DNA of 64,000 nt, taken from the NCBI GenBank assembly GCA_049603835.1, contig JBMYSZ010000015.1, forward strand, positions 19,576 through 83,575, read 5' to 3'. Within the stretch, counting starts at the first letter, position 1. Every line of letters begins with the position of its first letter. Source of the stretch: Mangrovicoccus sp. GTDB taxonomy: Bacteria > Pseudomonadota > Alphaproteobacteria > Rhodobacterales > Rhodobacteraceae. A model generated the notes under the pieces. The model saw only the letters and a program-made list of their open reading frames with translations. It was not told the DNA's origin and did not search any database. Shown piece by piece: positions 3,754 to 36,387 of the stretch. A program made the position numbers and the translations under genes.

Positions 3754-6700
3754 ATGGCTCAGTCCTTCCTTGGCCAGAAACGACTTCGCAAATACTATGG
3801 ACGCATTCGGGAAGTATTGGATCTGCCCGATTTGATCGGCGTCCAGAAAAGTTCCTATGATTTATTTCTTCGCTCTGGCGATAGTGAAACCCCGCTTGAC
3901 GGCGAGGGGATCATGGGTGTTTTCCAATCGGTCTTTCCGATCAAGGATTTCAACGAAACGGCAATTTTGGAGTTCGTAAAATACGAGCTGGAAAAGCCGA
4001 AATATGACGTTGAAGAATGTCAGCAGCGCGACATGACCTATAGCGCGCCTCTGAAGGTGACTTTGCGTCTCATCGTATTTGATGTGGATGAAGACACCGG
4101 CGCGAAATCGGTCAAGGACATCAAAGAACAAGATGTCTTTATGGGCGACATGCCTTTGATGACCCCGAATGGCACATTTGTTGTGAACGGCACCGAGCGG
4201 GTGATCGTTTCTCAGATGCACCGGTCGCCGGGTGTGTTCTTTGACCATGACAAAGGCAAAACCCATGCCTCGGGTAAGCTGCTCTTTGCGTGCCGGATTA
4301 TTCCGTATCGCGGCTCTTGGCTCGATTTCGAGTTTGACGCCAAGGATATCGTCTTTGCCCGTATCGACCGTCGCCGGAAATTGCCGGTCACCACGCTGCT
4401 TTACGCGCTTGGCCTGGACCAAGAAGGCATCTGTGACGCCTATTACGATACGGTCAATTTCTCGCTGGACGGCCATCGCGGCTGGGTGACGAAATTCTTC
4501 CCTGAGCGGGTGAAGGGCACGCGTCCGACTTATGACCTGATCGATGCGGCCACTGGCGAAGTGATCGCAGAGGCGGGCAAGAAAGTAACTCCGCGCGCAG
4601 TGAAGAAGCTGGTCGAAGAGGGGACTGTTACCGATCTGCTCGTACCTTTTGATCATATCATTGGCCGTTTCGTTGCCAAAGATATCATCAATGAAGAAAC
4701 CGGCGCGATCTATGTGGAAGCGGGCGATGAGCTGACTGTCGAATATGACAAAGACGGCGAAATCATCGGCGGCACGCTGAAAGACCTGATGGATGCGGGC
4801 ATCACGGATATCCCGGTGCTCGATATCGATAACATCAATGTCGGCCCCTATATGCGCAACACCATGGCCACCGATAAAAACATGAACCGCGAAAGCGCGC
4901 TCATGGATATTTATCGCGTCATGCGTCCGGGCGAGCCGCCGACCGTTGAAGCGGCCTCTGCTCTGTTTGATACGCTGTTCTTCGATAGCGAGCGCTATGA
5001 TCTCTCGGCTGTTGGCCGAGTGAAAATGAATATGCGTCTGGCTCTGGATGCGCCGGATACAATGCGGACCTTGCGCAAAGAAGACATCATTTCCTGCATC
5101 AAAGCGCTGGTCGAGCTGCGCGATGGCAAGGGCGAGGTCGATGATATTGACCACCTGGGCAATCGTCGTGTTCGCTCCGTTGGCGAGCTGATGGAAAACC
5201 AGTACCGCGTTGGTCTGTTGCGGATGGAGCGTGCGATCAAAGAGCGTATGTCCAGCGTCGAAATTGACACGGTCATGCCGCAAGACCTGATCAATGCGAA
5301 ACCGGCTGCCGCAGCGGTGCGTGAATTCTTTGGCTCTTCGCAGCTGTCGCAATTCATGGACCAAACTAACCCGCTTTCGGAAGTCACCCATAAACGCCGT
5401 CTTTCGGCGCTTGGGCCGGGCGGTCTGACCCGCGAGCGTGCTGGCTTTGAGGTGCGCGACGTTCACCCGACCCATTATGGCCGGATGTGTCCGATTGAAA
5501 CGCCGGAAGGTCCGAATATTGGTCTGATCAACTCGCTGGCGACGTTTGCGCGTGTCAACAAATATGGCTTTATCGAAACGCCTTATCGTAAGGTTATCGA
5601 TGGTCAGGTGACAGATGACGTAAGCTACATGTCCGCCACCGAAGAGATGCGGCATACTGTGGCTCAGGCCAATGCGAAGCTCGATGGTGAAGGCCGGTTC
5701 ATCAATGACCTGGTCTCGACCCGGAAGTCGGGCGAATATATGCTCAACCCGCCAGAAGTGGTGGATTTGATCGACGTTTCGCCCAAGCAGTTGGTCTCGG
5801 TTGCGGCCTCGCTTATTCCGTTCTTGGAAAATGACGACGCGAACCGGGCTCTGATGGGGTCGAACATGCAACGTCAGGCTGTTCCGCTTCTGCAAGCCAC
5901 CGCGCCGCTTGTTGGCACGGGGATCGAGCAGGTCGTCGCCCGCGATAGTGGTGCGGCGATCATGGCGAAACGCGGCGGGATCATCGACCAGGTTGACGCA
6001 ACCCGGATCGTTGTGCGCGCGACAGATAACCTAGAGCCGGGCGATCCGGGCGTGGATATCTATCGTATGCGGAAATTCCAGCGCTCGAACCAGAATACCT
6101 GCATCAACCAGCGTCCGCTGGTGAAAGTGGGTGATCGGGTCAGCAAGGGCGAAGTGATTGCCGATGGTCCGTCCACCGATATGGGGGAACTGGCGCTTGG
6201 CAAAAACGTCATCGTCGCCTTCATGCCGTGGAATGGCTATAACTACGAAGATAGTATCCTGATTTCCGAGCGTATTGTTCGCGACGACGTCTTCACCTCG
6301 GTGCATATTGAAGAATTCGAAGTCGCCGCACGGGACACCAAGCTTGGGCCCGAGGAAATCACCCGCGATATCCCGAATGTCGGCGAAGAAGCTCTGCGCA
6401 ATCTCGACGAGGCGGGGATCGTTTATATCGGTGCCGAAGTTGGCCCTGGCGACATCTTGGTGGGTAAAATCACCCCCAAAGGCGAAAGCCCGATGACCCC
6501 AGAGGAAAAACTTCTGCGCGCGATTTTCGGCGAAAAGGCCTCGGATGTGCGTGATACCTCCCTGCGCTTGCCGCCGGGGGATTACGGGACCATCGTGGAA
6601 GTTCGCGTCTTTAACCGCCATGGTGTGGATAAAGATGAGCGGGCGATTCAGATCGAGCGGGAAGAGGTCGAAAGCCTGTCGCGCGACCGTGATGACGAGC

Positions 6701-7890
6701 TGGCGATCCTGGACCGCAACATCTATGCGCGTCTGAAGGAAATGATCCTGGGCAAAGTGGCTGTCAAAGGTCCGCGCGGGGTTATGGCTGGTGGCGTGAT
6801 CACCGAAGATCTCTTGGCGAGCCTGTCCAAAGGTCAGTGGTGGCAGCTTGCCCTCGAAGAAGAAGCAGAGGCCCAGATGGTCGAAGCTTTGAACGCGCAA
6901 TATGAGGCCCAGAAACGGGCTCTTGACGCGCGCTTTGAGGATAAGGTCGAAAAAGTCCGCCGTGGCGATGATCTGCCGCCGGGTGTGATGAAAATGGTCA
7001 AAGTCTTTGTCGCGGTGAAGCGTAAGCTGCAGCCGGGAGATAAGATGGCCGGTCGTCACGGCAACAAAGGGGTTATCTCCCGCGTTGTTCCCATGGAAGA
7101 CATGCCCTTCCTGTCCGATGGCACCCCGGTTGATTTCGTGCTGAACCCGCTGGGCGTTCCGTCGCGGATGAATGTCGGTCAGATTTTGGAAACCCATATG
7201 GGCTGGGCCTCGCGCGGCTTGGGGATCCAGATCGATGAAGCGCTCAATGAGTACCGCTATTCTGGCGATCTCACACCTGTGCGGGATGCGATGAAATTCG
7301 TCTATGGCGATGAAGTCTATGACGAAGGCATCGCGGATATGGATGATACCGAATTGCTGGAAGCAGCCGGTAATGTCCGGGGCGGTGTGCCGATTGCGAC
7401 CCCTGTTTTCGACGGGGCGAAGGAAGCGGAAATCAATGATGCGCTGGTGCGAGCCGGTTTCTCCACCTCGGGTCAGTCGGATCTATTCGACGGGCGTACA
7501 GGCGAGAAATTCAGCCGTCAGGTAACTGTGGGCGTGAAATATCTGCTCAAGCTTCACCACTTGGTTGATGACAAAATCCACGCGCGGTCCACTGGCCCGT
7601 ACAGCTTGGTCACCCAGCAGCCGCTGGGCGGTAAGGCGCAGTTCGGCGGTCAGCGTTTCGGGGAAATGGAGGTTTGGGCTCTGGAAGCTTACGGCGCTGC
7701 ATACACCCTGCAAGAAATGCTGACGGTGAAGTCGGATGACGTGGCAGGCCGGACCAAGGTCTATGAAAGCATCGTGAAGGGCGAGGATAATTTTGAAGCC
7801 GGCGTGCCGGAATCCTTCAATGTTCTCGTCAAAGAGGTCCGGGGTCTGGGCCTCAATATGGAACTCCTGGACGCAGAGGATGCCGAATAA
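3754..7890 (+). CDS. rpoB: DNA-directed RNA polymerase subunit beta
   Basis: About 1378 aa from [16 protein letters not shown]. The ORF track begins 12 nt earlier at a GTG. RpoB motifs are conserved throughout. Confidence 0.97.
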
Positions 7891-19013: not shown

Positions 19014-19633
19014 TGAAAGCTCCTGTGATCAAATTGGATGCGGGCGAAGCTGGCGACATCGATCTGAACGAAGATGTTTTCGGCCTGGAACCGCGCGCTG
19101 ATATCTTGCATCGTGTTGTCCGCTGGCAGCGGTCGCGCATGCAGGCGGGCACTCACAAAGTGAAAACCCGTCGCGAGACCAGCTATTCCACCAAAAAGAT
19201 CGTTCGTCAGAAAGGCTCTGGCGGCGCACGTCACGGTGACCGGAATGCTCCGATCTTCCGTGGTGGTGGTATCTATAAAGGCCCGACCCCGCGGAGCCAC
19301 GCCCATGACTTGCCGAAGAAATTCCGCAAGCTCGGCCTGCGTCACGCTTTGTCGGCCAAGCAGGCTGCTGGTGAGCTGATCGTGATCGAAGAGGCGGTTT
19401 TGGCGGAAGCGAAAACCAAAGCTCTGTCCACCGCGGTGAAAAACCTCGGCTGGAAGCGCGCTCTGGTCATCGATGGTGCAGAAGTAAACGCAAATTTCGC
19501 AAAAGCAGCGGCGAATATCGAAGGTCTCGATATCCTGCCGAGCCAAGGTGCGAATGTTTATGACATCCTCAAGCGTGACACTCTGGTGCTCACCAAAGCA
19601 GGTGTCGAAGCGCTGGAGGCGCGCCTGAAATGA
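19013..19633 (+). CDS. rplD: 50S ribosomal protein L4
   Basis: 206 aa. Its start overlaps the rplC stop (TAATG). Confidence 0.95.
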
Positions 19634-19926
19634 GTGCAAAACCGGAGCATTACGACGTAATCCGTAAGCCGATCATCACCGAAAAAGCGACCATGGCCTC
19701 TGAAGCCAATGCGGTTGTTTTCGAAGTAGCGATCGACGCGGCGAAACCGCAGATCAAAGAAGCTGTTGAAGAGCTCTTTGGTGTGAAGGTGAAGGCGGTC
19801 AATACCACCATCACCAAAGGTAAGGTGAAGCGTTTCCGTGGCATGCTGGGCAAGCGTAAAGACGTTAAAAAAGCCTATGTGACCCTGGAAGAAGGCAACA
19901 CGATCGACGTATCGACCGGCCTTTAA
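19630..19926 (+). CDS. rplW: 50S ribosomal protein L23
   Basis: 98 aa. Its start overlaps the rplD stop (ATGA). Confidence 0.95.
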
Positions 19927-19937
19927 GCTTTGGCAGT

Positions 19938-19959
19938 GATGGGCAAATGCCCATCCTAC
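19938..19959. repeat. Single REP-like unit (GATGGGCAAATGCCCATCCTAC)
   Basis: Variant of the window-wide palindromic repeat, immediately 3' of rplW. Confidence 0.5.
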
Positions 19960-19970
19960 GCTTTTTGCAG

Positions 19971-19998
19971 CGCCTCCGCTTTTGCGGGGGCGTTTTGT
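19971..19998 (+). terminator. Terminator-like hairpin after rplW
   Basis: CGCCTCCGC-tttt-GCGGGGGCG followed by TTTTGTCT. Unexpected inside an S10 operon. Confidence 0.5.
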
Positions 19999-20125
19999 CT
20001 CATAAAGAGATTTCTTTGATTTTAGTGTATTCCTAATTTTGTGGAGCGTACATATTGGGGAGAAAGATCTCTAATTTGGACAAAGGGTTCTATTGAACCG
20101 AGCGCACGACGAAGGGAGGTAGACA

Positions 20126-20635
20126 ATGAACATCAATGCAGACCTCGCTGACCCCTCAGTACCAGTCTCCGATGCGTTGAACGTGGCTAATGAAATTCTG
20201 AAAATTGCAAAGCGCGAAGGTTTAGCTTTGACGCCTATGCAGTTAGTCAAGTTGACATATATCGCTCATGGATGGTCGCTTGCCATTCTCGAGCGTGATC
20301 TCTTTCAGGACCGGATTGAGGCTTGGAAATACGGTCCGGTTATTCCAGTGCTTTATCATGCTACAAAAAAATACGGTCGCGGAGTAATTCCTCTAGATTT
20401 AATAGATGAGGATACGCCGTCTCCCTTTGATGCCGATGTTACCGCATTGTTAGAAGATGTGGTGGCAAAATATGGGAACCTTAGCGGATACGCTTTGTCT
20501 AATTTAACGCACCGGGATGGAAGCCCATGGCAACAAGTGTTTAGGGAAGGTGTGATGAATATTCCCATAGGAGATGAAATTATCTCTCAGCACTATGGGG
20601 AGAAGCTCGATGCCTATAGACGTTCCACCTCCTGA
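20126..20635 (+). CDS. Panacea-domain (DUF4065 / COG3600 GepA-SocA-like) protein; putative PanA-type antitoxin or adaptor
   Basis: 169 aa. The strong SD GGGAGG lies 8 nt upstream. The segment ALNVANEILKIAKREGLALTPMQLVKLTYIAHGWSLAILERDLFQDRIEAWKYGPVIPVLYHATKKYG matches the conserved DUF4065 core (…ITNLKLQKLLYFAQGW…PLF.E.IEAW.YGPV.P.VY). Confidence 0.75.
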   Translation: MNINADLADPSVPVSDALNVANEILKIAKREGLALTPMQLVKLTYIAHGWSLAILERDLFQDRIEAWKYGPVIPVLYHATKKYGRGVIPLDLIDEDTPSPFDADVTALLEDVVAKYGNLSGYALSNLTHRDGSPWQQVFREGVMNIPIGDEIISQHYGEKLDAYRRSTS

Positions 20636-20960
20636 TGGTCCACTACCAGGACGTTGGGCGCAAGACGAAAGCGCTAGAAGAGAAAATCGCGACTGGGCGG
20701 ATGAAAGAAAATTAAGGGAAGCAAAGACATCGGCCGAGATTCTTTGGGCTAAATCCTACGGTTGGGCTATGATCGCGTTCCTAGCAGTGTTTTCGCTTCT
20801 TTTTTTGGGTAGTTTATCTGCCTGGTCACTTCATTACCTATTACCTGTCAAGTTTCATTGGTTGAGTTCTGATCAACTGTCAAAAGTTCAGTCTGTAATT
20901 TTTAGCGGAAGCCTTGGCGGTGTCGTGTCATTTGTTGCGCAAAAGCAATTGTCGAAATAG
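20610..20960 (+). CDS. Small single-pass membrane protein (toxin/effector candidate) overlapping the 3' end of the Panacea gene
   Basis: 116 aa from ATG 20610, with SD GGGGAGAAG 5 nt upstream. In-frame alternative starts lie at 20574 and 20595. It has a charged N-terminus, one hydrophobic helix (YGWAMIAFLAVFSLLFLGSLSAWSL) and a short C-terminal tail. The start overlaps the upstream stop by 26 nt. Confidence 0.55.
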   Translation: MPIDVPPPDGPLPGRWAQDESARRENRDWADERKLREAKTSAEILWAKSYGWAMIAFLAVFSLLFLGSLSAWSLHYLLPVKFHWLSSDQLSKVQSVIFSGSLGGVVSFVAQKQLSK

Positions 20961-21151
20961 CAAACCGCGTTCATAAAACTCCTAGACCCCCCTCTACCCA
21001 TCTGCTATTAGCGCCGGACCTAAACGGCCTCGGATTCGTTCCGGGGCCTTCTCTATTATAATTCGGGCACCTTCGGGGGCCTTTATTTGGGACCTGAGTC
21101 CGCGATCTCGCATCGCAAAAAAGGGCCCTCTAACAACGGAAGACAGAAACT

Positions 21152-21994
21152 ATGGCACTTAAGTCGTATAAACCGACGACGCCTGGCCAGCGTGGGCTGG
21201 TTCTGATCGACCGTTCGGAGCTTTGGAAAGGGCGCCCGGTCAAAAAACTCACTGAGGGTTTGACCAAATCGGGCGGTCGGAACAATACCGGACGGATCAC
21301 TTCTCGCCGTCGCGGCGGTGGCGCAAAACGCCTCTACCGTATCGTGGATTTCAAGCGTCGGAAATTCGATGTAGCGGCAACCGTCGAACGGATCGAATAT
21401 GACCCGAACCGGACCGCCTTTATCGCGCTGATCAAATATGACGATGGTGAGCAGGCCTATATCCTGGCACCGCAGCGTCTGGCGATTGGTGACAAAGTCA
21501 TCGCGGGCGCCAAAGCCGATATCAAGCCGGGCAATGCAATGCCGTTCTCCGGTCTGCCGATCGGGACCATCATTCACAATATCGAACTGAAGCCGGGCAA
21601 GGGCGGTCAAATCGCACGCGCTGCAGGCACTTACGCCCAGTTCGTTGGCCGTGATGGTGGCTATGCGCAGATCCGTCTGAGCTCGGGCGAGCTTCGCCTG
21701 GTCCGTCAGGAATGCATGGCAACTGTTGGCGCCGTGTCGAACCCGGATAATTCTAACCAAAACCTCGGTAAAGCTGGCCGTGTCCGTCACATGGGCAAAC
21801 GTCCGAGCGTTCGTGGTGTGGTTATGAACCCGATCGATCACCCCCATGGTGGTGGTGAAGGCCGGACTTCCGGTGGTCGTCACCCGGTTACCCCCTGGGG
21901 TAAGCCGACCAAAGGCGCGCGGACACGCGACACCAACAAAGCGTCGCAGAAGCTTATCATCCGCTCGCGTCACGCCAAGAAGAAGGGCCGCTAA
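21152..21994 (+). CDS. rplB: 50S ribosomal protein L2
   Basis: 280 aa. [17 protein letters not shown]... is a typical L2 N-terminus. Confidence 0.95.
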
Positions 21995-23824: not shown

Positions 23825-23836
23825 GCCTCTGCCAAT

Positions 23837-23942
23837 GATGGGCATATTGCCCATCCTACGAAATTGACCCCCGTCGTTACTTTAGCGGCGGGGGTTTTTT
23901 AATGTCGCGGATAGTGGGAGTAGGATGGGCATTTTGCCCATC
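23837..23942. repeat. Inverted pair of REP-like units bracketing a terminator
   Basis: GATGGGCATATTGCCCATCCTAC (23837-23859) and GTAGGATGGGCATTTTGCCCATC (23920-23942). Confidence 0.6.
23868..23900 (+). terminator. Rho-independent terminator immediately after rplP
   Basis: CCCCCGTCG-ttactttag-CGGCGGGGG followed by TTTTTT. Confidence 0.7.
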
Positions 23943-23987
23943 ATTGCCGTGAGATCGCGCGGCGGTTGATGCTCACCACGAAAAGCT

Positions 23988-24455
23988 TTAGCCGAGGCAG
24001 AGTGTGGTTTTCTGCGCCTGGCAGGCGGCGATCCGGTGCGGATAAGCGGCGCGATAGTCGTCTAGCTCAAACAGTGCCAATAGCGCTTCGGGATTTGGAT
24101 AGGTGCCAATCGCCACCAAATCCCAATCTTCTTCGCCGCCGATAAAGCTAGCTCCAAATGGCGCCACGAGCAAAAACCGGCCGCCAATTTTTTCGAGGCT
24201 CGGCATGCTCACCGCTGCATAGCGCTGGAACGCGTCTTGCCCCGAAACCGCCGCTGCATCCGCAGGATCACTCCCTGCAGGATAGGCTGCGATCCCTCGC
24301 ATTTTAAAGAAATTCACTAGGGTCACCGGCTGATCTTCGGGCAAGTCTATCAGCTCTGCCCAGGCGGCTTTATTGGGTAAGCCAACGCCCTCATCCCCCC
24401 ATTTGCCTAGGATAGCCTCAATACGTGCGGCGCGGTTTTGCGATGTCGAATTCAT
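23988..24455 (-). CDS. DUF1330-domain protein
   Basis: About 156 aa from MNSTSQNRAARIEAILG. Motifs PVTLVNFFKMRG...FQRYAAVSMPSLEKIGGRFL...EDWDLVAIGTYPNPEALLALFELDDYR fit the DUF1330 profile. The ORF-track N-extension is not supported. Confidence 0.55.
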   Translation of the reverse strand: MNSTSQNRAARIEAILGKWGDEGVGLPNKAAWAELIDLPEDQPVTLVNFFKMRGIAAYPAGSDPADAAAVSGQDAFQRYAAVSMPSLEKIGGRFLLVAPFGASFIGGEEDWDLVAIGTYPNPEALLALFELDDYRAAYPHRIAACQAQKTTLCLG

Positions 24456-24580
24456 GCGTCTCGTCTCCAAAAACTTCCGCCCCTCATGAGCGGTTGCGCA
24501 ACACCTATTGGCAAAGTACATATTCACAAGTAGGCAATTATTTTTGGGGTAGTACGCTTTTTGGTACTATTGGAGGCCGC

Positions 24581-24952
24581 ATGACCCAGCAAACCCAACA
24601 AAACCAGCCCGCCATTCCGGCAACTGCGGCCGGTATGTGTCAGCTGCCATGTCCCATGCCCGATATCGTTTCCCTGGTGGGCGGCAAATGGAAACTGATC
24701 ATCCTGCAAATTTTGGTCTTTGACGGCACGCAGCGTTTCGGTGAACTCAAGCGCCGCCTTGAGGGTGTCAGCCAAACCATGCTGACCAATCAGCTCCGTG
24801 GGTTAGAGGCAGATGGGCTGGTCTTCCGCAAGGTCTATGCCGAAGTGCCGCCGCGGGTCGAATATAGCGCCACGCCCTTGGCCCAGGATATGCAGCCGGT
24901 TTTCTTCGCCTTGCGCGATTGGTGGAAACGAAACCATCCTGAGCCGAAATAA
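24581..24952 (+). CDS. HxlR-family winged-helix transcriptional regulator
   Basis: About 123 aa from ATG 24581 (SD GGAGG at 24572). CPMPDIVSLVGGKWKLIILQIL...TQRFGELKRRLEGVSQTMLTNQLRGLEADGLV matches the HxlR fold. It is divergent from the DUF1330 gene. Confidence 0.7.
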   Translation: MTQQTQQNQPAIPATAAGMCQLPCPMPDIVSLVGGKWKLIILQILVFDGTQRFGELKRRLEGVSQTMLTNQLRGLEADGLVFRKVYAEVPPRVEYSATPLAQDMQPVFFALRDWWKRNHPEPK

Positions 24953-25060
24953 ATAAAGTAAGTTTCGAATTTAGCCATTAATGCCGCATTTCTCTTCACA
25001 TTGTTGGCGTGGTAATTGTTTTGACACCCCTCCGCGCTGCAGAAGAGAGCTCTGATTTCC

Positions 25061-26059
25061 ATGACAGTTTATGCGATTAATGGCCTTGGCCGCATGGGGA
25101 AGCTGATGCTGCGCCCCTTCCTAGAGCGCGGCGGTGAGCTGGCTTTTCTCAATGATCTGAACGCCACACCGGAGATGATCGCGCATCTGCTAGAATTCGA
25201 CACGATCCATGGTCGCTGGCCTGCGGAATTCGGTTTTGATGAAAACTCGATCCAGATTGATGGCCTGAAACTGCCGCTGCTCAATGAGGCGCGGATAGAA
25301 GATCTGCCACTTGACGGCGTCGATGTGGTGATCGATTGCACCGGCGTTTTCAAATCCGAAGCCAAGCTTGCCGCTTATTTCGCCGCCGGGGTGAAGAAGG
25401 TTGTGGTCTCCGCTCCGGTCAAAGACGGCCCCACGGCGAATATCGTCTATGGCGTCAATCAGCACATTTATGATCCGGCCGAACATCAGATCATCACTGC
25501 CGCAAGCTGCACAACCAATTGCATCGCGCCAGTGGTGAAGGTTCTGCATGAAGAGATCGGTATCAAACACGGCTCGATCACGACCATCCATGACGTGACC
25601 AATACGCAAACAATCGTGGATAAGCCCGCCAAAGATCTGCGCCGGGCGCGCTCTGCGATGAATTCCTTGATCCCTACCACCACCGGTTCGGCCACGGCGA
25701 TCACCTTGATCTATCCCGAGCTGACGGGGCGTCTGAATGGCCATGCGGTCCGGGTGCCTTTGCTCAATGCCTCGCTCACCGATTGCGTTTTCGAGATGGA
25801 GCGCGAAGTAACCGTCGAAGAGCTGAATGCCCGGTTCAAAGCGGCTGCAGAGGGGCCTTTGAAAGGGATCTTAGGATATGAAGAGCGACCGCTTGTTTCG
25901 GCGGATTACGTAAATGATCCGCGTTCGGGGATCGTCGATGGATTGTCCACAATGGTGGTCAATGGCACCCAAGCCAAGATCTATGTCTGGTATGATAACG
26001 AATGGGGCTATGTGTATCGCCTGGTCGATGTGGCGATGATGGTGGGGGAGGCGCTTTAA
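25061..26059 (+). CDS. gap: Type I glyceraldehyde-3-phosphate dehydrogenase-family protein (likely a second, accessory copy)
   Basis: 332 aa with a Rossmann N-terminus (INGLGRMGK), the catalytic SCTTNC motif and the C-terminal WYDNEWGY. Confidence 0.75.
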
Positions 26060-26110
26060 GCGCCGCCGCTCGGGTTTGGGCCAGGGGCCTCTAAGGGGCT
26101 AAGGGGGGTC

Positions 26111-27480
26111 TCAGGCCATTTGCGCCATGGATTGTGGGGCCGGGGCGCGCCGCCGCTCTGGCATGCGCCGTCTCTGCCGGGGCCGCGCTGTCCCCGCCGG
26201 GCTTGACCCGGCGGCTCTTTGCCCAGGGGTTTCGCTATAGCCTTCCGACAGGATCTGGGCAAAGACCCAATTCATTAGCGCCATGCCAGAAGCCGAAGCC
26301 AACACCAAAGGCAGGCCGCCAATATAATAGCTCAGCCCCGAAAGCAGCGTGCCAATCAAACGCCCCGCCGCATTGGACATATAGTAAAAGCCTACATCCA
26401 TGGCGGCGCGATCATCCTTGGTAAAGGCGAGGATGAGATAGGAATGCACCGAGGAATTCACCGCAAAGATCGCCCCAAAGATCAGCAGCCCCACCACCAG
26501 CACCGCAGTGAGCCAGCCCACCGGCCCGCCAGCGAGTAGCGCGGCAATGGTCAGCGCCACTGGCACAGTTACCAAAATCCCTGCCCAGCGGCGTGCCAAT
26601 TGGACAACGTCCTTTAGCTCTTTATCCTTAGCTTTCAGGAATTTCGGCGCATAGGCCTGCACCGCCCCATAGCCCACCAGCCATAGTGCCATAAAGGCGC
26701 CGATCATGAAAAAGGCCATGCGCATTCCTGGCACGGTGCCATCGCTTAGCACCTGATAGAAATAGGCGGGGATCCCGACCACAAACCAGGCATCGCGCGC
26801 GCCAAAGAGGAAAACTCGGGCGGCGGAGAGAATATTGATATTGCGATCCTTGGAAAAGACCTCTTGGAATTTCGCCGATTTTCGCCCAGTGGGCAGACCG
26901 CGCGGCATAAAGCTAAAGACCAGGCTCAACACCACGGCGAGGGCCACGGCCATGGAAAGCGTCGCCCCGGTAAAACCCAAAAGCGCCAGCAGAGCAGCGC
27001 CAAGCAAAAAGCCCAGCCCCTTCACCGCATTCTTTGAGCCGGTCAGCGCGGCGACCCATTTGAACAGCGCGCCTTTCTCTTCCTTTGGTGCCAGCAATTT
27101 CACCGCGCTTTTAGAGCTCATCTTGGTGAGGTCTTTCGCAACCCCGGCGCAGCCCTGCACCACCATCACAAAAGCGACGGAGGCCCAAAGCGCCCAAGCC
27201 GGGTTGAGCTGGGCCAGGGCAAGCAGAGCGCCGATTTGCAGCACAAGCCCCGCATAAAGCGTGACCGTCAGGCCAAACCGCGCGGCGAGCCATCCCGCGG
27301 TCAGATTGGTCACCATGCCCATGAATTCATAGAGTAAGAACATGAAAGCCAGCTGCACCGGGCTGAAGCCCAAAGTCTCAAAATGTAGCAGCACCAGCAT
27401 GCGCAAAGCGCCATCGGTGAGCATAAAAGCCCAATAGGCCGCCGTCACGGCAATATAAGCGGCAACAGGATTATGGTCGC
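26111..27480 (-). CDS. MFS transporter (true start uncertain)
   Basis: The C-terminal ~430 aa of the 657-aa ORF (from ...NPVAAYIAVTAAYWAFMLTDGALRMLVLLHF) form a 12-TM MFS-like core. The Ser/Arg/Pro-rich N-terminal extension is unlikely to be translated; the real start is probably a GTG or TTG near 27,400-27,500. Confidence 0.5.
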
Positions 27481-28209
27481 CGCGTCCATGCAGACGATCT
27501 TTCAGCGATGATTTTTGCGGCTGCGTGCTGGTCGCGCCTTCGCCCTTATTCGATAGGAAAGACAGCTTATCCGCGAAGGGGTTGGCCGGGCCGAAGCCGA
27601 ATTTTGCGGCGCTAGAAAGAGCGGCAAGGCCGAGACATAGCCCAATAAAGGCCAGGCCTGCTTGCTGCACCGAGGTGGAAAAAATGGCGACGGTTGAGAT
27701 GCCAAAAGCCACAACCGTCGTCCAAAGCGCGGAGCTTGTCCAAAAGCTGCTGCTTGTCTTTGCTTCGGCTCCCGCATCAGGCTTTGGCGTCCAGACTAGG
27801 GGAGGGAAGGCATAGCTCCGGCCATTCTTTGTCGCGTCCAGGCTACGCCAGCTGGGGCGCAATTTCGTGCGCGGCTTGGGGCGATCGACCGAGATTGTCC
27901 GCCCTTTGAGCTCGTGCAGCGACACAGAGGACTGACGCGAAGCTGTCGATGCGGCGGGCCTTGTCTGGGTAGGTTCGGGCACCTGCTTGCGATAGCGCTT
28001 TGGCGGGACACGGCGAGACATTTTTGAGGCGGCGCGAGATGCAGACATAGGGGAACTTCGAAAATCGTGATCAATTCGCCCCAATTTAGCCCGATAACTT
28101 TCGAAATGACTACTATTATATCCCGAATATTTTGCAGATCTTGGCAGATTGCGGCGGGAATGTTACCTAGCGCCAATGCGAATGCGGAGCTTTGAGGTAG
28201 CAAGCGGTA

Positions 28210-29529
28210 GTGTCTTCAGCGTCTTCAGTGGCTGCGGTTTGGCCAGCGAAAGAAATTTGGCTTTTGGCCCTGCGCGGCGGCGCTTCGGTGCTCAATGGCA
28301 TTTTGGCGGCCCTCGCTTTGCGGGCCTTCCCCGATCTTGATGCTATCGCCCGGCTTTCGCCTATTTTTATTCTTTTTGTAGCCATCGCACTGCTCACCGA
28401 TAGCAATCTGCGAGAGATGCTGCATGGGCATGTGGTGCTGGATTGGGTTAATCGCCGCTATGACGCTCTCCGGGCGGAAATTTCCCAGGCGCCCAAAGGG
28501 ATTGCCGCGCTTCGGGCGGTCAATTCTGGGGATCCCGTGGCGCTGACGGGCCATGTGGCGCTGGCGCTCAATAGTGTCTTTGCGATTTTAGCAGTGCTGG
28601 CGGGGCTCGCGATTTTATCGCGGGCGGCCTTTATTTTGCATCTGCTGGCCGTGGCGGTGATTGCGGCGATTTTATTTGTGGCATGGCTGGAAAAGGGCTT
28701 TGCCGCGCGGCTATCGGCTTGGCCGCATCTGCTGCCGAGCTTGGCTCTGGTCACGACGATCTTGCAGGTTTTCTTGCTGCCCGCGCTTTTGCCTGGCACC
28801 TCGACCGAGATTTTGGCCGGTTGTGCGATCCTTTCCCTGGCCATGGCTTTGCCGATCACGCGGATTGCCGATTTGCCCGAAAGCTTTGCGCTTCTGCGCG
28901 ATTTGCACCAACTGCCCCAGGGGGGGGACGATACGGAAACTCAGCCACCGCCACCGCCGCTTGGTTTTTCGGTCGATGGGCAAAGCTTTGGCGCGGGGGA
29001 TTGCCTGGTGATCCATTGCCGAACTGCGGTGCAGCAGCGTCAGATTATGCGTGGTTTTTCCGGGTCAGAGCCTTTGCCCAGCCATGTCGCCCAAGATCTT
29101 GGAGCCCAGGATAGCGCCATGGACGTGGCGCGGATTGCCCAGCAAACAGCCCCGGTTTTCGCCGATCCTATGCCATTCGTGCCGCCCATCACCGCAAGCG
29201 CTGCGCCGATTGCCTTGGGTCCGCTTGCCCATGCTTTGGAGTTGCCCGAAGATATCCTGACTTGGCCCGGCGGCTTTTTGCATCTGGAGGATGCTGTGCC
29301 AGGACCGGGGCTATTGGGCGCTATTTGCGATCCGCGTCCAGTGATCTTAGCGGAAATGCCAAAACGCTTTTTCGGGCCCACAGAGGCGGTGAAACGTCGG
29401 GCTTTGCTGGCAGCGGCGGCGAAATCCGGCAAGGTGCTGATCTGTGTCACCCATGGCGCCGCGCCGCCCGAGCCTAAGGGGGCGAAATTTTTGCTCATCG
29501 ATCTCACCCAAAAGGCCGCCCAGCCATGA
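28210..29529 (+). CDS. Hypothetical protein: N-terminal multi-TM domain plus a C-terminal soluble domain with degenerate ABC-NBD-like remnants
   Basis: 439 aa with a hydrophobic N-terminal half. The C-terminal half shows faint ABC-ATPase-like strings (GDCLVIHCRT..., KRRALLAAAAKSGKVLICVTH) but no Walker A motif. Its stop overlaps the next start (ATGA). Confidence 0.4.
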   Translation: MSSASSVAAVWPAKEIWLLALRGGASVLNGILAALALRAFPDLDAIARLSPIFILFVAIALLTDSNLREMLHGHVVLDWVNRRYDALRAEISQAPKGIAALRAVNSGDPVALTGHVALALNSVFAILAVLAGLAILSRAAFILHLLAVAVIAAILFVAWLEKGFAARLSAWPHLLPSLALVTTILQVFLLPALLPGTSTEILAGCAILSLAMALPITRIADLPESFALLRDLHQLPQGGDDTETQPPPPPLGFSVDGQSFGAGDCLVIHCRTAVQQRQIMRGFSGSEPLPSHVAQDLGAQDSAMDVARIAQQTAPVFADPMPFVPPITASAAPIALGPLAHALELPEDILTWPGGFLHLEDAVPGPGLLGAICDPRPVILAEMPKRFFGPTEAVKRRALLAAAAKSGKVLICVTHGAAPPEPKGAKFLLIDLTQKAAQP

Positions 29530-30374
29530 GCCCGCTTTTCCTGCTTTGGCGCATGATCACCGCCCAGCCGCGTATCGGGATCGTTTTGATCTTTCTGTCC
29601 ATCGCGGCGGCTCAGGTGCATGCCACGCTGCTTTTGCTGATCGTGACGAAAATCGCTGGGCTGCTCGACTTGGCTGACCGCTCTGTCACGCTTTGGATGC
29701 CGCTGCTCACGGGGCTCGCCAGCGTCGCGCTAGAAATCTTTGCGGGCTATTTCTCGCGGGTGTTTGCGACGGATCTGGAAGAAAAGCTCGACTTGCCCAA
29801 ACCGATCCTAGAAGAGCATTGCCGCTTGTTGCGCATCGCCTGCGCTTTGGCCTCGATCCTAGTGATGCTGTTTGTGTTCAATTGGGGACTGTTTTTGGCG
29901 GGAACTGTTTTACTGGCCTCGCTTTTGCGGGCGCTTTGGCGCGCAACGAATGAAAGCAAACCTGCCATGGAAGAGCAAAGGCGCGCGCAAGCGGTGATCG
30001 ATGAGAGCCTAGCGCAAATCGCCCAAAGCCCCGATACGGTGCGGGCCTATCCCGAAGCTGTGCGCGACATGCTGGGGCAAAGCATACGGGCCGATTTCAT
30101 CGCCGAGGGCCAGCGCGTACATGCGGCCAGCAAAGCCGGGGGGCGGCTGGGCTTCTGGTCGTTATTTCGCTGGTATATCGTGGTCTTTGCGGCGCTTTTC
30201 CTGTTGCCGCAATATGGGCTGAGCCCTCCAACTGTGCTGATCCTTTTGGCCTATCAATTGGTGTTGCTGGATCAATTCTCTAGCCTTTATCTCGCCCAAG
30301 CGCGGCGGATTGAGGCAGGGTCGCCAATGGAGCAAGAGATTTGGCAAGAAGTTGAGACATTCTTTGTTCGCTGA
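29526..30374 (+). CDS. ABC exporter transmembrane-domain-like protein (MsbA-like N-terminal TMD, no ATPase domain)
   Basis: 282 aa. DRSVTLWMPLLTGLASVALEIFAGYFSRVF closely resembles the MsbA TMD segment DRSVLVWMPLVVIGLMILRGITSYVSSY. Translationally coupled to the upstream ORF. Confidence 0.5.
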   Translation: MSPLFLLWRMITAQPRIGIVLIFLSIAAAQVHATLLLLIVTKIAGLLDLADRSVTLWMPLLTGLASVALEIFAGYFSRVFATDLEEKLDLPKPILEEHCRLLRIACALASILVMLFVFNWGLFLAGTVLLASLLRALWRATNESKPAMEEQRRAQAVIDESLAQIAQSPDTVRAYPEAVRDMLGQSIRADFIAEGQRVHAASKAGGRLGFWSLFRWYIVVFAALFLLPQYGLSPPTVLILLAYQLVLLDQFSSLYLAQARRIEAGSPMEQEIWQEVETFFVR

Positions 30375-30490
30375 TTGATTTTTAGCTAGCCTTAGGTCAA
30401 TGATTTGTTGAAAAGCGCTTTGTTGATCCTCTGGCATCATACAAAGTGCAGGGGCCATGAGGGCCCGATCTGATTTGGGCCAGACTTAAG

Positions 30491-31204
30491 GTGATTTCTA
30501 TGGCACGAACCACAAAGACGACCGGCACAAATGCTGACGAGACCGCAACCGACAAGGTTGAAGCGGTAAGCTCCGAAACCGAGGCCGAAGCTACAACCAG
30601 CGACGCGGCAAGCGCGGATGACAGCAAGGATGTTGTGGCTATGGACACCGCCGAGAGCGCGGAAGAGGCCAGCAGCGACGACATGGTTGAGCTGCCCTCG
30701 CAGGTTGAGATCGATAATCTGATCAAAGGCTATGTCATTGCCTCTATGGCCTCTGCGGCGATTCCGGTTCCGCCTGCCGATACGGCGGCGATCATCGCGA
30801 CCCAGGTGAAAATGATCCATGGCCTGGCCAAGCTTTATGATGTGCCATTCACCCGTGGCATCGCGCAAAATCTGGTTGTTTCGCTGATCGGCGGTGTTGC
30901 GCCTTTGGCGGTGACTATGGGCGTTGCGAGCCTGGCGAAAACCGTACCGGTGATCGGCACTTTTGGTGGCATGTCGGGCATGGTGATTTTGGCGGGCGCC
31001 TCTACTTATGCAACCGGCCAAGTTCTGGTGCATCACTTTGAGAATGGCGGCACTTTGGTGAATCTGGACACGGCGAAAATCCGCGAGGAATATCGCAATC
31101 AGCTGCGCAAAGGCAAAGAGCTGACCCGCCGTCTACGCGGCAAATCTGCCGAAGCGACCGCAGCAGAGAGCGTTAGTGCTGAGGGCGAGGCCCAGCCCGC
31201 CTAA
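30491..31204 (+). CDS. DUF697-like membrane-associated protein with an acidic low-complexity N-terminus
   Basis: 237 aa. The central region (KGYVIASMASAAIPVPPADTAAIIATQVKMIHGLAKLYDVPF...LIGGVAPLA) resembles the DUF697/YcjF C-terminal domain. Confidence 0.4.
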   Translation: MISMARTTKTTGTNADETATDKVEAVSSETEAEATTSDAASADDSKDVVAMDTAESAEEASSDDMVELPSQVEIDNLIKGYVIASMASAAIPVPPADTAAIIATQVKMIHGLAKLYDVPFTRGIAQNLVVSLIGGVAPLAVTMGVASLAKTVPVIGTFGGMSGMVILAGASTYATGQVLVHHFENGGTLVNLDTAKIREEYRNQLRKGKELTRRLRGKSAEATAAESVSAEGEAQPA

Positions 31205-31231
31205 TCCCGCCCTTTTGCGGAAGTTATCGTT

Positions 31232-32770
31232 TTGCGTGTGACCAAAGAAGATGTGAGCCCTCGGCGGAAGAAACCTGCTCCGCCGAGCTCTTGGCGCGAG
31301 CGACTGCATCGGATAGGGCGCGCCTTTAGCCGGATCTCTTTGGCGGTGGTGGTTCTCTTTTTGCTGCTGCTGGCTGCGATTTATCCGGCGGTGGTGCGGG
31401 TCGTCCCTGCCGGTGCGGCGGGGGTGATTTATAAGCCCCTGCGCGGCGGGACAGTGACAGACCGGATCTTTGGTGAAGGGGTCCATGTCAAATATCCTTG
31501 GGATACGCTTTACGTCTATAATACCCGGATCCAAACGATCCTGCATGATTTCACGGTTCTGACCAATAAGGGCCTGCCGGTCACGCTGCGCCTGGCGATC
31601 CGGTTTCATCCCGAGCGCGAGATGATCGGGCGGCTGCATAAGCAGGTTGGTCCGAATTACGCCGAGACGATTATTGTCTATCAGATCGAGTCTGTGCTCA
31701 GGAAACGTCTGGGCAAGGAAGACCCCGAAGACATTTACACCAATCGCTCGGGCACGCTGACGGATGTCTTCGAAAATGCGATTGAGGAAGTGGGCCAGCG
31801 CTATGTGCGCATCACTGATGTGATCATCCGCGAAATCGTGTTGCCAAGCCAGGTTGTGGCAGCAATCGAGGAAAAGCTGGTGCATCAGCAAAAGCTTGAA
31901 GCCTATGAGTTCCGCTTAGAAACCCAAGCCCGCGAGGCAGAGCGGATGCGGATCGAAGCGGCGGGGATCCGCGATTATCAAGCAACCATCAATGAAACCC
32001 TGAGCAAAGATCTGATCGTTTGGCAGGGGGTGAATGCAACGGTTGAGTTGGCGCAATCGGATAATGCCAAAATCGTGGTGGTCGGCTCGGGCGATAAGGG
32101 GCTGCCGGTGATTTTGGGCGCGGATAGTTTTGCCACTGGCCCAGAGGGGACGGGTGGCGGAGCGGGCTTGGCTGGCCCCGGCGCGGCGGTGGCCGCAAAT
32201 GCGGCGTCTGCGCCTGCGCCTGCGCCTGCGGAGCCCGGCGGAGCTGGGGCTATGGTGATGTCTCCCGATTTGCGTCTCTCCAGCGCCGCGCTTCCCCCGA
32301 TGCAAGAGCAAGTCCAAAGTCCGGTATCAGAGCCGGTGCCGCAGCAATCGCCCCGCCCTGGTCTAGAGCCGCTGCCGCAGCTTTGGGCCTTTTTGCCGCC
32401 CTTCCTGCAACCCAAAGAGGGGCCCGTGCCAAGCCAAGATCCAGCCGCGCCGCGCGCTGCACATGAGGCGGTGCCCTATGTCAGCGCGGCCGAGCAAACC
32501 GGCGCGACAGCTGCGGCGGGCGTCAACTCATACGGGCCGATGCGCCGCTATTCGCCTCTTGCGGGTGAAGCCATGCCGCCCTTTGTGTCGATCTTCCAGC
32601 GCCGCTATTCCCTGCCGCTCGATCCGGTCTTTGATCCGCATGCGCAAAATGGCAGCCCCGTCGCCGGGCGTTTGGGGCCAACCAGTCAGCACACAGCGCG
32701 GGCGCAGATTGGCAAACGCGGCTTGATTGCGGCGGAATTCCTGCAAAATCCATCTGATATTCTGCCATGA
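31232..32770 (+). CDS. SPFH/band-7 (prohibitin/HflC-like) domain protein with a long Pro/Ala-rich C-terminal tail
   Basis: An N-terminal TM helix followed by an SPFH core (VVRVVPAGAAGVIYKPLRGGTVTDRIFGEGVHVKYPWDTLYVYNTRIQT...). The C-terminal ~200 aa are low complexity. Confidence 0.6.
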   Translation: MRVTKEDVSPRRKKPAPPSSWRERLHRIGRAFSRISLAVVVLFLLLLAAIYPAVVRVVPAGAAGVIYKPLRGGTVTDRIFGEGVHVKYPWDTLYVYNTRIQTILHDFTVLTNKGLPVTLRLAIRFHPEREMIGRLHKQVGPNYAETIIVYQIESVLRKRLGKEDPEDIYTNRSGTLTDVFENAIEEVGQRYVRITDVIIREIVLPSQVVAAIEEKLVHQQKLEAYEFRLETQAREAERMRIEAAGIRDYQATINETLSKDLIVWQGVNATVELAQSDNAKIVVVGSGDKGLPVILGADSFATGPEGTGGGAGLAGPGAAVAANAASAPAPAPAEPGGAGAMVMSPDLRLSSAALPPMQEQVQSPVSEPVPQQSPRPGLEPLPQLWAFLPPFLQPKEGPVPSQDPAAPRAAHEAVPYVSAAEQTGATAAAGVNSYGPMRRYSPLAGEAMPPFVSIFQRRYSLPLDPVFDPHAQNGSPVAGRLGPTSQHTARAQIGKRGLIAAEFLQNPSDILP

Positions 32771-33978
32771 GACGGCTGCGCTATATTGCATCCGTGCTGG
32801 TGATCGCGGTGATGGTGCAAATTTCGGGGCTCGTGGATCTGGGCCTGCGTCTTGGCTCGCAAAGCCTGACCCTGCCGCGGCTGCCCGAGCCGGATTTCCC
32901 TGAGCCCGGCGAGAGCTGGATGATTGGCGTCTATTATTACGAGGCTCTGCATCCCGGATTTCTTGCGGGCGCAGAGCTGGCCGAGGCGGAGATCAATGCC
33001 AAGGGCGGCATTTTGGGACGCCCCATCAAGATCAAGGCGGTGGATGAAGCTGGGTTTTCGGAACGTGCCGAAGAGCGCAATCTAGCCGCCCGGCGCCATT
33101 TCGATCATGATCGAGTTTTGGCGGTGATGGGCGGGTCGTCAGATCTGATTATTCGTAATGCCTCGGATTGGTTTGACGATCTTGGGATCCTCTATTTCAA
33201 TCCGCTCTTTCCGCTGTCCAATGTGGGCAATCCAGGCAAGCCCTATGTCTTTGCCACGATCCCCGATCGCGAGCGGATCGGCGATAACCTGGCCCAAGCC
33301 ATGAGCGAAATGGGGGCAACGCGCATCGCGATTGTGGCAAGTCGGGAGCGGGCCGCGCAAGAGATCCGGCATTCGATCCAAGATATTGCCCCGAGCCTGG
33401 CTTTAGACGTGGTGGCGGATCTGGGTATGGCAGGGGCGGATGCCAGTTATATCGACGAGCTGGTTCGCCTCAGCTCGGCCCAGCCCGAGGCGATTGCGCT
33501 TTTGCTGCCCAAAGCCGAACGCGAGGTGTTTTTGCGCCAAGCCGCTCGGATGAAGCTGAATGCGCCGATTTTCTTAGGCCATCCGGAGGGGATCGTGCCA
33601 TGGGCCGAGGATTTCGCGGGGCTCACCGCAACGGAATGGCCAGAACTGGAACTGTGGCAGGCGGAACCGCTGGAAAATCCACGCGCCGATAGGGCCGGGC
33701 TGTCACGCTTTCAAACCAGCTATCAGAGCCGCTTTGATCAAGCTCCGAGCTATTGGGCCGCCCAAGGATATGATACTTTGCGGATGATCGCGCAGGTGGC
33801 GGAAGAGATTGGGTCGGATCACCCGCTCCAGATTGCCACGGCGCTGAATACGCAAACCGCCTGGACAGGCATTACCGGCCCGCATTCTTTCACCAATTCG
33901 GGTCGGATCTATACGAAGGACTGGCCTTATGGGCCGCTGCGCCTCACAGATTTGGCGCGTAACACTCTAAGCCATTGA
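32767..33978 (+). CDS. Periplasmic substrate-binding protein, LivK/branched-chain amino acid-binding (type 1 PBP) family
   Basis: 403 aa with an N-terminal signal anchor. WMIGVYYYEALHPGFLAGAELAEAEINAKGGILGRPIKIKAVDEAG is typical of Leu/Ile/Val-binding proteins. Its start overlaps the SPFH stop (ATGA). Confidence 0.55.
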   Translation: MRRLRYIASVLVIAVMVQISGLVDLGLRLGSQSLTLPRLPEPDFPEPGESWMIGVYYYEALHPGFLAGAELAEAEINAKGGILGRPIKIKAVDEAGFSERAEERNLAARRHFDHDRVLAVMGGSSDLIIRNASDWFDDLGILYFNPLFPLSNVGNPGKPYVFATIPDRERIGDNLAQAMSEMGATRIAIVASRERAAQEIRHSIQDIAPSLALDVVADLGMAGADASYIDELVRLSSAQPEAIALLLPKAEREVFLRQAARMKLNAPIFLGHPEGIVPWAEDFAGLTATEWPELELWQAEPLENPRADRAGLSRFQTSYQSRFDQAPSYWAAQGYDTLRMIAQVAEEIGSDHPLQIATALNTQTAWTGITGPHSFTNSGRIYTKDWPYGPLRLTDLARNTLSH

Positions 33979-33987
33979 GAGGCAGCT

Positions 33988-34173
33988 ATGATCATCGTCA
34001 AAGCGCATATGATGCCAGCAATTTTGATCTATCTTAGCATTTGCGGGGTGATCGGGCTGATGGGGCGGCGCAGAAAGCTGGGGGGCTGGGCGTATTTCTT
34101 TGCCTCGATCTGCCTGACGCCGTTGATTGGCTTTCTGCTCATCTCCGCATCGGATCCGCGTCCGCGATGGTGA
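33988..34173 (+). CDS. Small two-TM membrane protein (PLDc_N-like)
   Basis: 61 aa with AGAGG 7 nt upstream. GWAYFFASICLTPLIGFLLISAS resembles the PLD-nuclease N-terminal small membrane domain. Its stop overlaps the next ATG (ATGGTGA). Confidence 0.35.
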   Translation: MIIVKAHMMPAILIYLSICGVIGLMGRRRKLGGWAYFFASICLTPLIGFLLISASDPRPRW

Positions 34174-34961
34174 GAGCCTGGGCTTTTGGCGCGGCGCTTT
34201 TGGCAAGCCTGCCAGGTGCGGCATTGACGGAGACCCGGCGCGATCATGTGAAGCTGGCAGTGCCTTTCGCGCTGTTGCCTTATGCCCAGGCCGAGGCGAG
34301 CGCCTTTGCGGCAGAGCATCCGTTTAAGTTTCCCGAACTGCTTTCAGCGCGGGATTCGGCTATGCCATGGCTTTTTTGCCGGGGCGGGGTTTCTGATAGC
34401 CCGGATATGGGCCTGGCTTTTGCGCCGCTAAGCGCAGAGATTTCGGAGCTTTGCGCGACTTTTGGCAAAACCGATCTGACCCAGATGGCGGGCGGGGGGA
34501 TGCAGCTTTCGGCTTTTGCTCTGACCTCGCGTGATTTGGCGGGGATCGATTTGGCTGAGCTTGATTTGGCAGAGCTGAGCGCGGGGGATCTGTCTTGGCA
34601 GGATCTGCGGAGCGATCTGCCCGATGCGCCTTTGCGCTTTTATTTGCCAGGGGATGCGGCGCGGCTGGCTTTTGCTCAGGCCTTAGCAGAGCAATGTTCG
34701 CAGGAGGAGGGCTGCGCCTTTGAGCAAAGCCTGGCCAGCTATGAAAGCTTGCGCCGCCCGGAGGATCTGGATCCGAATGGGATCTATTTTATACCCGGCT
34801 CGGGCGCGGTGCAGCTGATCGGCTGGAGCCAGCTAGAGATCCAGCCTCAGATCGAGTTGCCGCTATATCTTTGGCTCAGAACCGAGCGGATTGAGACAGT
34901 AATTGGGGCAAAGCCGGCTGTGAAAGCATTGGCCCTTTGCGGCGGTGACAGTGCCTGTTGA
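34167..34961 (+). CDS. Hypothetical secreted protein
   Basis: Signal peptide MVRAWAFGAALLASLPGAALT, translationally coupled to the upstream small ORF. No recognisable domain, and the sequence is Asp/Leu-repetitive. Confidence 0.3.
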   Translation: MVRAWAFGAALLASLPGAALTETRRDHVKLAVPFALLPYAQAEASAFAAEHPFKFPELLSARDSAMPWLFCRGGVSDSPDMGLAFAPLSAEISELCATFGKTDLTQMAGGGMQLSAFALTSRDLAGIDLAELDLAELSAGDLSWQDLRSDLPDAPLRFYLPGDAARLAFAQALAEQCSQEEGCAFEQSLASYESLRRPEDLDPNGIYFIPGSGAVQLIGWSQLEIQPQIELPLYLWLRTERIETVIGAKPAVKALALCGGDSAC

Positions 34962-34969
34962 GCCCGAGC

Positions 34970-34992
34970 GGTGGGCCAATTGCCCACCCTAC
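34970..34992. repeat. Single REP-like unit (GGTGGGCCAATTGCCCACCCTAC)
   Basis: Near-perfect copy of the consensus palindrome. Confidence 0.5.
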
Positions 34993-35058
34993 ATTGCCTT
35001 CGCCATTAGCTCTGCTTGCGGCAGGCCTTAAACTTTGGGATAGGGGCCTCGCCTGGTT

Positions 35059-36298: not shown

Positions 36299-36387
36299 GG
36301 CCGCTCTGGTGCCTCAGTCGGGCGTCGGTTACAAGGCTACAGAGCGCGCAGAGCCGCTTGACTGAATGGGAAAAGCTAGTGCGGTGC

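Follow-up and report, generated by a model that had tools for sequence, protein, structure and literature searches.

What are two overlapping reading frames doing in the middle of a ribosomal-protein gene cluster? This question is raised by a 64,000-nucleotide (nt) stretch of DNA from Mangrovicoccus sp. (contig JBMYSZ010000015.1; the window, meaning the whole stretch that was analysed), in which the genes run in the order tuf, rpsJ, rplC, rplD, rplW, rplB, rpsS, rplV, rpsC, and rplP, with rplW ending at 19926 and separated from rplB by a 1,225-nt spacer. The spacer holds two same-strand open reading frames (ORFs), 20126-20635 (169 amino acids, aa) and 20574-20960. We propose from their sequences that 20126-20960 is probably a type II PanA-PanT toxin-antitoxin module, in which panA would encode a Panacea-domain antitoxin and panT a candidate membrane toxin, and, as part of the same explanation, that the module was horizontally acquired as a cassette of ~1.1 kb in the permissive, terminator-bracketed spacer between rplW and the leader RNA of the L2 gene.

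The upstream gene, panA (20126-20635, plus strand), is preceded by a Shine-Dalgarno sequence, GGGAGG (20113-20118, plus strand, read from the sequence), 7 nt before the ATG at 20126, and its 169-aa product is a predicted Panacea-domain antitoxin with no extra N-terminal domain. Residues 40-136 match the full length of the Pfam profile PF13274 (SocA_Panacea, DUF4065; E 2.9e-18, 67.3 bits against a cut-off of 25.7), and the protein also matches phrog_1281 (E 2.1e-38) and shares 35% identity with the PanA that is paired with a T12 toxin in phage S1249. It carries the GPV signature (W67-K-Y-G70-P71-V72), a motif of Panacea that is reported to be critical for neutralisation and for which G62A/V64S mutants appear in the plasmid table of the reference study (Kurata et al. 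2022, PNAS, PMC8832971).

The downstream ORF (20574-20960, plus strand) contains three in-frame ATGs, at 20574, 20595, and 20610, the first of which would give 128 aa, and starting at these would overlap panA by 62, 41, and 26 nt, respectively, just as an earlier note on this DNA had claimed. That note preferred 20610 while calling the start ambiguous; the preference is borne out and the ambiguity no longer holds. A search of 5.8 billion proteins returned 17 homologues, all of 115-122 aa and, an identical database copy excepted, 35-64% identical to the window's protein; one match is this very protein, annotated at NCBI with 116 aa in a metagenome-assembled genome of Mangrovicoccus sp. All 17 align from the Met at 20610 (MPIDVPPP, against a consensus of x-DVPPP), and at seven homologous loci there is no alternative in-frame start upstream, with a stop codon directly before the start in two of the seven. 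The shared Met and these seven loci together place the start of panT at 20610, so that the gene, supported by the homologue alignment, the NCBI annotation, and the T12 profile match described below, spans 20610-20960 (plus strand), encodes a small membrane protein of 116 aa, and overlaps panA by 26 nt. Its Shine-Dalgarno sequence, GGGGAGAAG (20597-20605, plus strand, read from the sequence), lies inside the 3' end of panA; it does serve the ATG that the earlier note had singled out, although at 4 nt from it, with the GGAG core at 7 nt, rather than at the 5 nt first given. Across eight loci, differing sites at codon positions 1, 2, and 3 stand at 0.42, 0.31, and 0.66 (0.29, 0.20, and 0.65 over the last 40 codons), a pattern that indicates a coding frame under purifying selection and, with the 17 homologues, argues that the ORF did not arise by chance. 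We regard panT as confirmed as a real, conserved gene starting at 20610. As an observation apart, the GGGAG of its Shine-Dalgarno sequence can pair with the CCUCC that codes for the conserved PPP motif close to the panA stop (20597-20632), and ribosomes finishing panA could open this pairing. This is a thought only, and we make no claim on the pairing since shuffled sequence folds as stably as the panT start region (z -0.18).

The two genes belong together. A Panacea gene lies directly upstream of panT, on the same strand and overlapping it by 4-32 nt, at every homologue locus with complete upstream DNA that was checked (L001-L005, L007, L088-L090, and L092/L093, from metagenomes, Jannaschia formosa, Cohaesibacter, and Rugamonas rubra). 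The upstream panA of L088 and L089 was missed by gene calling and recovered by tblastn, the upstream gene of L091 is cut by the contig end yet matches PanA by tblastn, and in all, tblastn places PanA upstream of panT in 10 of 10 loci. The search for homologues beside other DUF4065 genes that had been suggested for this DNA accordingly finds PanT as the downstream partner of a Panacea gene at all loci examined, and the absence from homologous islands that would have marked a chance ORF is not what is seen. A PanA-PanT pair is recognised by two neighbouring genes on one strand that overlap or are separated by less than 100 nt, in a conserved arrangement, as is found here with the 26-nt overlap. 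The identities of PanA and PanT to the proteins of the window fall in parallel from locus to locus (70/62, 55/53, and 41/37%), which is the pattern expected if panA and panT are co-inherited, moving and diverging as a unit. The neighbours of the pair vary at every homologue locus (an integrase, IS1-like transposases, flagellar genes, housekeeping genes), and this variety marks the pair as a mobile two-gene module. The recurrence of small overlaps across the family also fits the translational coupling that had been read from the overlap.

Two sets of homologue loci show further features of their surroundings. In Jannaschia formosa (L003, 5323-7289) and a metagenome contig (L004, about 5350-7280), a common ORF of ~72 aa abuts panA upstream and an IS1-like DDE transposase gene lies ~45 nt 3' of panT, so the pair may travel with an insertion sequence there. 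The presence of a gene with a Cytotoxic domain (PF09000) and of an HTH_3 protein near the distant PanAT homologue in Rugamonas rubra (L093, 5044-5277) suggests an islet rich in toxins.

The nature of the candidate toxin is indicated by its kinship with a known group. Nine toxins neutralised by PanA have been validated, three of which, the T3 toxin of E. coli, the T12 toxin of Bartonella apis, and one from a Helicobacter species, act on the membrane (Kurata et al. 2022, PNAS, PMC8832971). In the T3 and T12 toxins, which are possibly homologous to each other, a charged N-terminal portion precedes a C-terminal transmembrane region, and the E. coli and Bartonella apis PanTs cause strong depolarisation together with permeability to SYTOX (PMC8832971). 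The supplementary table of that work lists D11S_2262 of phage S1249 as T12, along with the validated Bartonella apis PanT, and every T12 pair in it has the order antitoxin then toxin, with a spacing of -29 to +28 nt (PMC8832971). In hhalign comparisons, the profile of the window's PanT family matches D11S_2262 at 96.2% (E 2.5e-9) and a 19-sequence profile of its Pasteurellaceae relatives at 97.4% (E 1.4e-11, 77 columns). The match runs from the basic residues ahead of the transmembrane helix through that helix and the H-x-L-x-P...W-H-[FW]-L...Q-L turn into the C-terminal helix, and the motif common to both families is H-x-L-x-P-x-x-W-H-[FW]-L-x3-Q-L. An exhaustive hidden Markov model search with the combined alignment returned 1,023 cluster representatives at E <= 1e-3 (229 at E <= 1e-10), most of 110-140 aa, so that the wider PanT superfamily is large and is without a model in Pfam, PHROG, or NCBIfam. 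These data support the prediction of a divergent, new PanA-PanT pair with a T12-like membrane toxin, and the earlier proposal of a small transmembrane candidate toxin paired with a Panacea antitoxin now has behind it homology to members of a cluster that includes a validated depolarising toxin. That the roles of the two proteins are inverted, as was also suggested, is unlikely given the gene order of all tabulated T12 pairs and the GPV motif in PanA.

The T12 pairs, of which that of Bartonella apis (WP_077993240.1/WP_077993242.1) is the validated member, likewise have a Panacea-only antitoxin upstream, with a small overlap or gap between the two genes, and their toxins likewise measure ~115 aa and are charged in the N-terminal and hydrophobic in the C-terminal half. 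The T12 members of Pasteurellaceae and phages, however, are only ~15-20% identical to the window's PanT in pairwise comparison, and the window's sub-family, so far only from marine Alphaproteobacteria and metagenomes, has a C-terminal signature of its own, QLSKIQSVIFSGSLGG. The likeness to T12 is one of homology to its members and does not imply a placement of the window's PanT among T12, T3, or other clusters. Cluster T3 (E. coli STEC O31, WP_000019185.1), validated as depolarising and permeabilising, has the same composition according to its authors, and is likened to PanT by that description only. Type I toxins such as Hok and TisB have the same expected effect, that of a small hydrophobic protein depolarising the inner membrane, and HokB served as the comparison in the reference study (PMC8832971). 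These are proteins of 20-60 aa under antisense-RNA control, in contrast to PanT with its 116 aa, large cytoplasmic region, and protein antitoxin, and no sequence relationship was found between PanT and type I membrane toxins (Hok, TisB, and similar).

The architecture of PanT follows the T12 layout of a charged N-terminus and a transmembrane part, and all 35 family members are alike in this. Residues 1-48 are charged (9 K/R and 10 D/E in the first 50) and are followed by a transmembrane helix at residues ~49-75 (SYGWAMIAFLAVFSLLFLGSLSAWSLH; 20754-20834, plus strand), whose Kyte-Doolittle hydropathy has a 19-residue maximum of 2.23, with 1.6 being the usual threshold for a membrane span; over the 35 members this value ranges from 2.1 to 3.2. 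In all 35 members, K and R are more numerous on the N-terminal side of the helix than on its C-terminal side (mean 2.8 versus 0.3), which by the positive-inside rule predicts a cytoplasmic N-terminus. The topology prediction called for earlier thus gives one strong helix with the N-terminus inside throughout the family, and the charged region and single hydrophobic helix of the earlier description stand; the short, featureless tail does not, since it is a 41-aa part that is the best conserved of the family (H-Y-x-x-P...W-H-W-L...QLSKIQSVIFSGSLGG). Within it, a conserved turn, H-Y-L-x-P...W-H-W-L, leads into a near-invariant helix, QLSKIQSVIFSGSLGGVVS, at residues 87-115 (SDQLSKVQSVIFSGSLGGVVSFVAQKQLS; 20868-20954, plus strand), which contains most of the invariant columns and has an AlphaFold predicted local distance difference test score (pLDDT) above 90. 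This helix is not amphipathic, and its Kyte-Doolittle value of 1.25-1.47 (0.6-1.0 in the Pasteurellaceae branch) is below 1.6, so it is uncertain as a second transmembrane helix. The AlphaFold model, built on the 35-sequence alignment (pLDDT 86), has helices at 15-18, 20-30, 32-77, and 87-115, of which the last two pack against each other in a hairpin. Searches of the PDB gave only noise with the sequence profile of PanT (best E 0.009, a G-protein-coupled receptor fusion) and nothing at E <= 0.001 with Foldseek and the AlphaFold model, only generic helical hairpins, and tblastn with PanT found no match among 50,697 records of phages and 72,556 of plasmids.

Based on this kinship and architecture we put forward a mechanism for the module. 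PanT would be a 116-aa inner-membrane protein with a charged cytoplasmic region of ~48 aa, one transmembrane helix, and the conserved C-terminal helix. PanA would be made first from the shared transcript and, as the 26-nt overlap favours coupled translation, synthesis of the toxin would follow that of the antitoxin. PanA would bind PanT directly, with the cytoplasmic N-terminal region as the most plausible contact, and would thereby neutralise it; the PanAs tested to date need neither ClpXP nor Lon for neutralisation (PMC8832971). By homology to T12, free PanT would insert into the membrane and oligomerise, and the loss of membrane potential or permeabilisation that results would stop growth. 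Toxicity, pore formation or depolarisation, direct binding, and translational coupling are all predicted here.

How such a module came to lie among ribosomal-protein genes is answered in part by its composition. The insert is a low-GC cassette of ~1.1 kb (19945-21024, no strand assigned, approximate in extent and at its left edge) that reaches from rplW to the conserved native spacer 5' of rplB. Its GC content is 45-48% compared to 55-59% in the flanks, and GC at third codon positions is 0.44 in panA and 0.385 in panT versus 0.57-0.69 in the ribosomal genes; the cassette is foreign in composition. The spacers of relatives match only 21020-21151 of the rplW-rplB spacer in the window, and in genomes with short spacers this conserved part starts ~19-23 nt past the rplW stop. 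An independently assembled contig (L007) reproduces the junctions of the window exactly. Just past rplW and 5' of panA, a terminator scan finds a terminator-like GC hairpin followed by UUUUGUCU (19969-19992, plus strand), with an RNA fold of -21.6 kcal/mol (z -4.9, a value reached by none of 200 shuffled sequences), and at the right-hand boundary of the variable region it finds a conserved hairpin, GGCCTCGGATTCGTTCCGGGGCC, followed by a U-rich tail (21026-21048, plus strand; -18.6 kcal/mol, z -4.8), which looks like a cassette terminator. Both hairpins would terminate transcription. Beyond them, native and outside the cassette, an L2-Alphaproteobacteria ribosomal-protein leader RNA (Rfam RF03142; 21065-21149, plus strand; 48.1 bits against a gathering score of 37.8, E 2.1e-9, full model length) lies directly 5' of rplB (21152-21994, plus strand). 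The two hairpins and the leader point to the rplW-rplB junction as a natural transcriptional break, and the leader implies that rplB and the later genes are regulated separately from rpsJ-rplW in this lineage. The ribosomal-protein cluster of the window has a second break further on, where ~12.8 kb (23825-36595) lie between the end of rplP (23824) and the start of rpmC (36596) and hold the non-ribosomal genes for DUF1330, GAPDH, a major facilitator superfamily transporter, DUF697, SPFH/Band 7, a periplasmic binding protein, and a 2OG-Fe(II) oxygenase.

The same spacer is variable in relatives. We retrieved 80 Rhodobacteraceae genomes with the L23 protein (L008-L087) and took ~3.5 kb downstream of rplW. 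In the 61 loci holding both genes, the rplW-rplB spacer measures 93 to 3,390 nt; the other 19 mostly have no rplB within the ~3.5 kb retrieved, and a few are cut by the contig end. About 15 genomes have a spacer of 93-181 nt and all others one of 265 to >3,400 nt; the shortest spacers consist of a hairpin and the L2 leader only. Every insert is placed after the rplW stop and before a hairpin with conserved stem and loop (GGATTCGT), which marks the right edge of the insert (GGCCYCGGATTCGT(T)CCGGGGCC, stem and loop conserved across many genera) and stands 100-175 nt 5' of rplB at most loci with an insert (e.g., L071, L066, L018, and L025). In insert-free genomes, the corresponding hairpin varies in its loop. 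The conserved hairpin may act in recombination, may belong to the L2 leader as its upstream portion, or may simply be a terminator. The cargo is unrelated between genomes: 89 Pfam families are represented among its 140 ORFs, which lie on both strands, and neither integrase nor transposase is among the commonest cargo families listed. PanAT is not a common cargo of the site, as none of the 80 related rplW loci carries it. We found no description of an rplW-rplB insertion hotspot in the literature.

Several points weigh against a PanA-PanT module with a membrane toxin. PADLOC has no family for PanA or PanT at E <= 1, and PanT has no match in Pfam, PHROG, or NCBIfam. As to expression, a sigma-70 promoter scan of 19600-21400 found no site, and thus none 5' of panA, and an alignment of the regions 5' of panA from seven loci showed no conserved promoter or operator. 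The link to the validated Bartonella apis PanT runs via other T12 members and the clustering by Kurata et al. Finally, eight predicted PanTs were not toxic in E. coli, and PanA-PanT complexes have been seen by pull-down for the five toxins with which the assay was made, all of them soluble (PMC8832971), so that the binding of a membrane PanT by PanA is a prediction.

These points leave the PanA-PanT module as the probable reading, against which four others must be weighed. It is possible, though not likely, that the same parts and the same toxic step serve another biological role, that of an anti-phage abortive-infection module in which infection inactivates or depletes PanA or triggers PanT directly, and depolarisation kills the infected cell before phage release. 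This would agree with the location of the T12 pair of prophage S1249 in the lysogeny/moron region, between cI and integrase and away from the lysis genes, with a panT homologue that adjoins a phage-type integrase, resolvases, and a Bro-N gene, and with the matches to the defence genes AbiP2 (3.7e-188), PD-T4-6, and Old among the cargo of the rplW-rplB hotspot in relatives. Most of that cargo, however, is unrelated to defence (ATP-binding cassette transporters, desaturases, redoxins), several panT homologues lie among housekeeping genes, and the PADLOC result counts here as well.

An unlikely but related proposal starts from the site itself, namely that the spacer is a site-specific gene-capture site in the S10 cluster, marked by the hairpin GGCCYCGGATTCGTYCCGGGGCC just 5' of the L2 leader, with PanAT as a cargo that either aids retention of the insert or acts in abortive infection, being expressed by read-through of the rplW terminator. 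The variability of the spacer is plain from the 80 genomes; a dedicated capture mechanism and a coupling to transcription of the ribosomal operon are speculation on our part.

It is similarly doubtful that PanT is non-toxic and serves as a membrane anchor or partner that localises PanA, or as a holin-like or accessory membrane protein. PanT matches no annotated family or solved structure, and some predicted PanTs are non-toxic in E. coli (PMC8832971), both of which would suit such a role. Yet PanT is homologous to the T12 cluster with its validated toxic member, and the strict layout of antitoxin, then overlapping toxin, is typical of toxin-antitoxin pairs. Nor does PanT resemble a phage holin or lysis protein, as it has no holin match in PHROG or Pfam, and the lysis cassette of S1249 lies elsewhere than its PanAT pair, with the homologue outside it.

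We consider it very improbable that the pair is a type VI system like SocA-SocB of Caulobacter crescentus, with PanA as a proteolytic adaptor that delivers PanT to ClpXP and does not block it by binding. The antitoxins do share a Pfam domain, with PanA matching SocA_Panacea and aligning with the NCBIfam family SocA_antitoxin (NF047745, E 6.5e-27), and the authors of the PanA work note that type II and type VI mechanisms need not exclude each other (PMC8832971). The NCBIfam score of PanA (94.3 bits), however, is far under the equivalog cut-off of 190, PanT is a small membrane protein unrelated to SocB, which is a soluble replication inhibitor dealt with through a ClpXP adaptor, and the PanAs tested neutralise without ClpXP or Lon (PMC8832971). 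A chance open frame in AT-richer foreign DNA, for which only the missing database annotation speaks, is refuted by the 17 close homologues and the 1,023 cluster representatives of the wider superfamily, by the codon-position pattern, and by the conservation of length, start, and pairing with PanA.

With the PanA-PanT reading, a hypothetical protein gains a start, a family, and a testable function within a superfamily of 1,023 cluster representatives that has neither a name nor a Pfam entry. The Panacea membrane-toxin class would be extended to marine Rhodobacteraceae, and the near-invariant C-terminal helix is the obvious target for mutagenesis. A PanA-PanT pair with a membrane toxin is already a known kind of system; the unusual feature of this one is its place in a variable hotspot between ribosomal-protein genes. 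We propose that a toxin cassette is tolerated between these essential and highly expressed genes because the junction, with its terminator-like hairpin and own L2 leader, is already a transcriptional break, at a site that is a hotspot of gene turnover across the Rhodobacteraceae.

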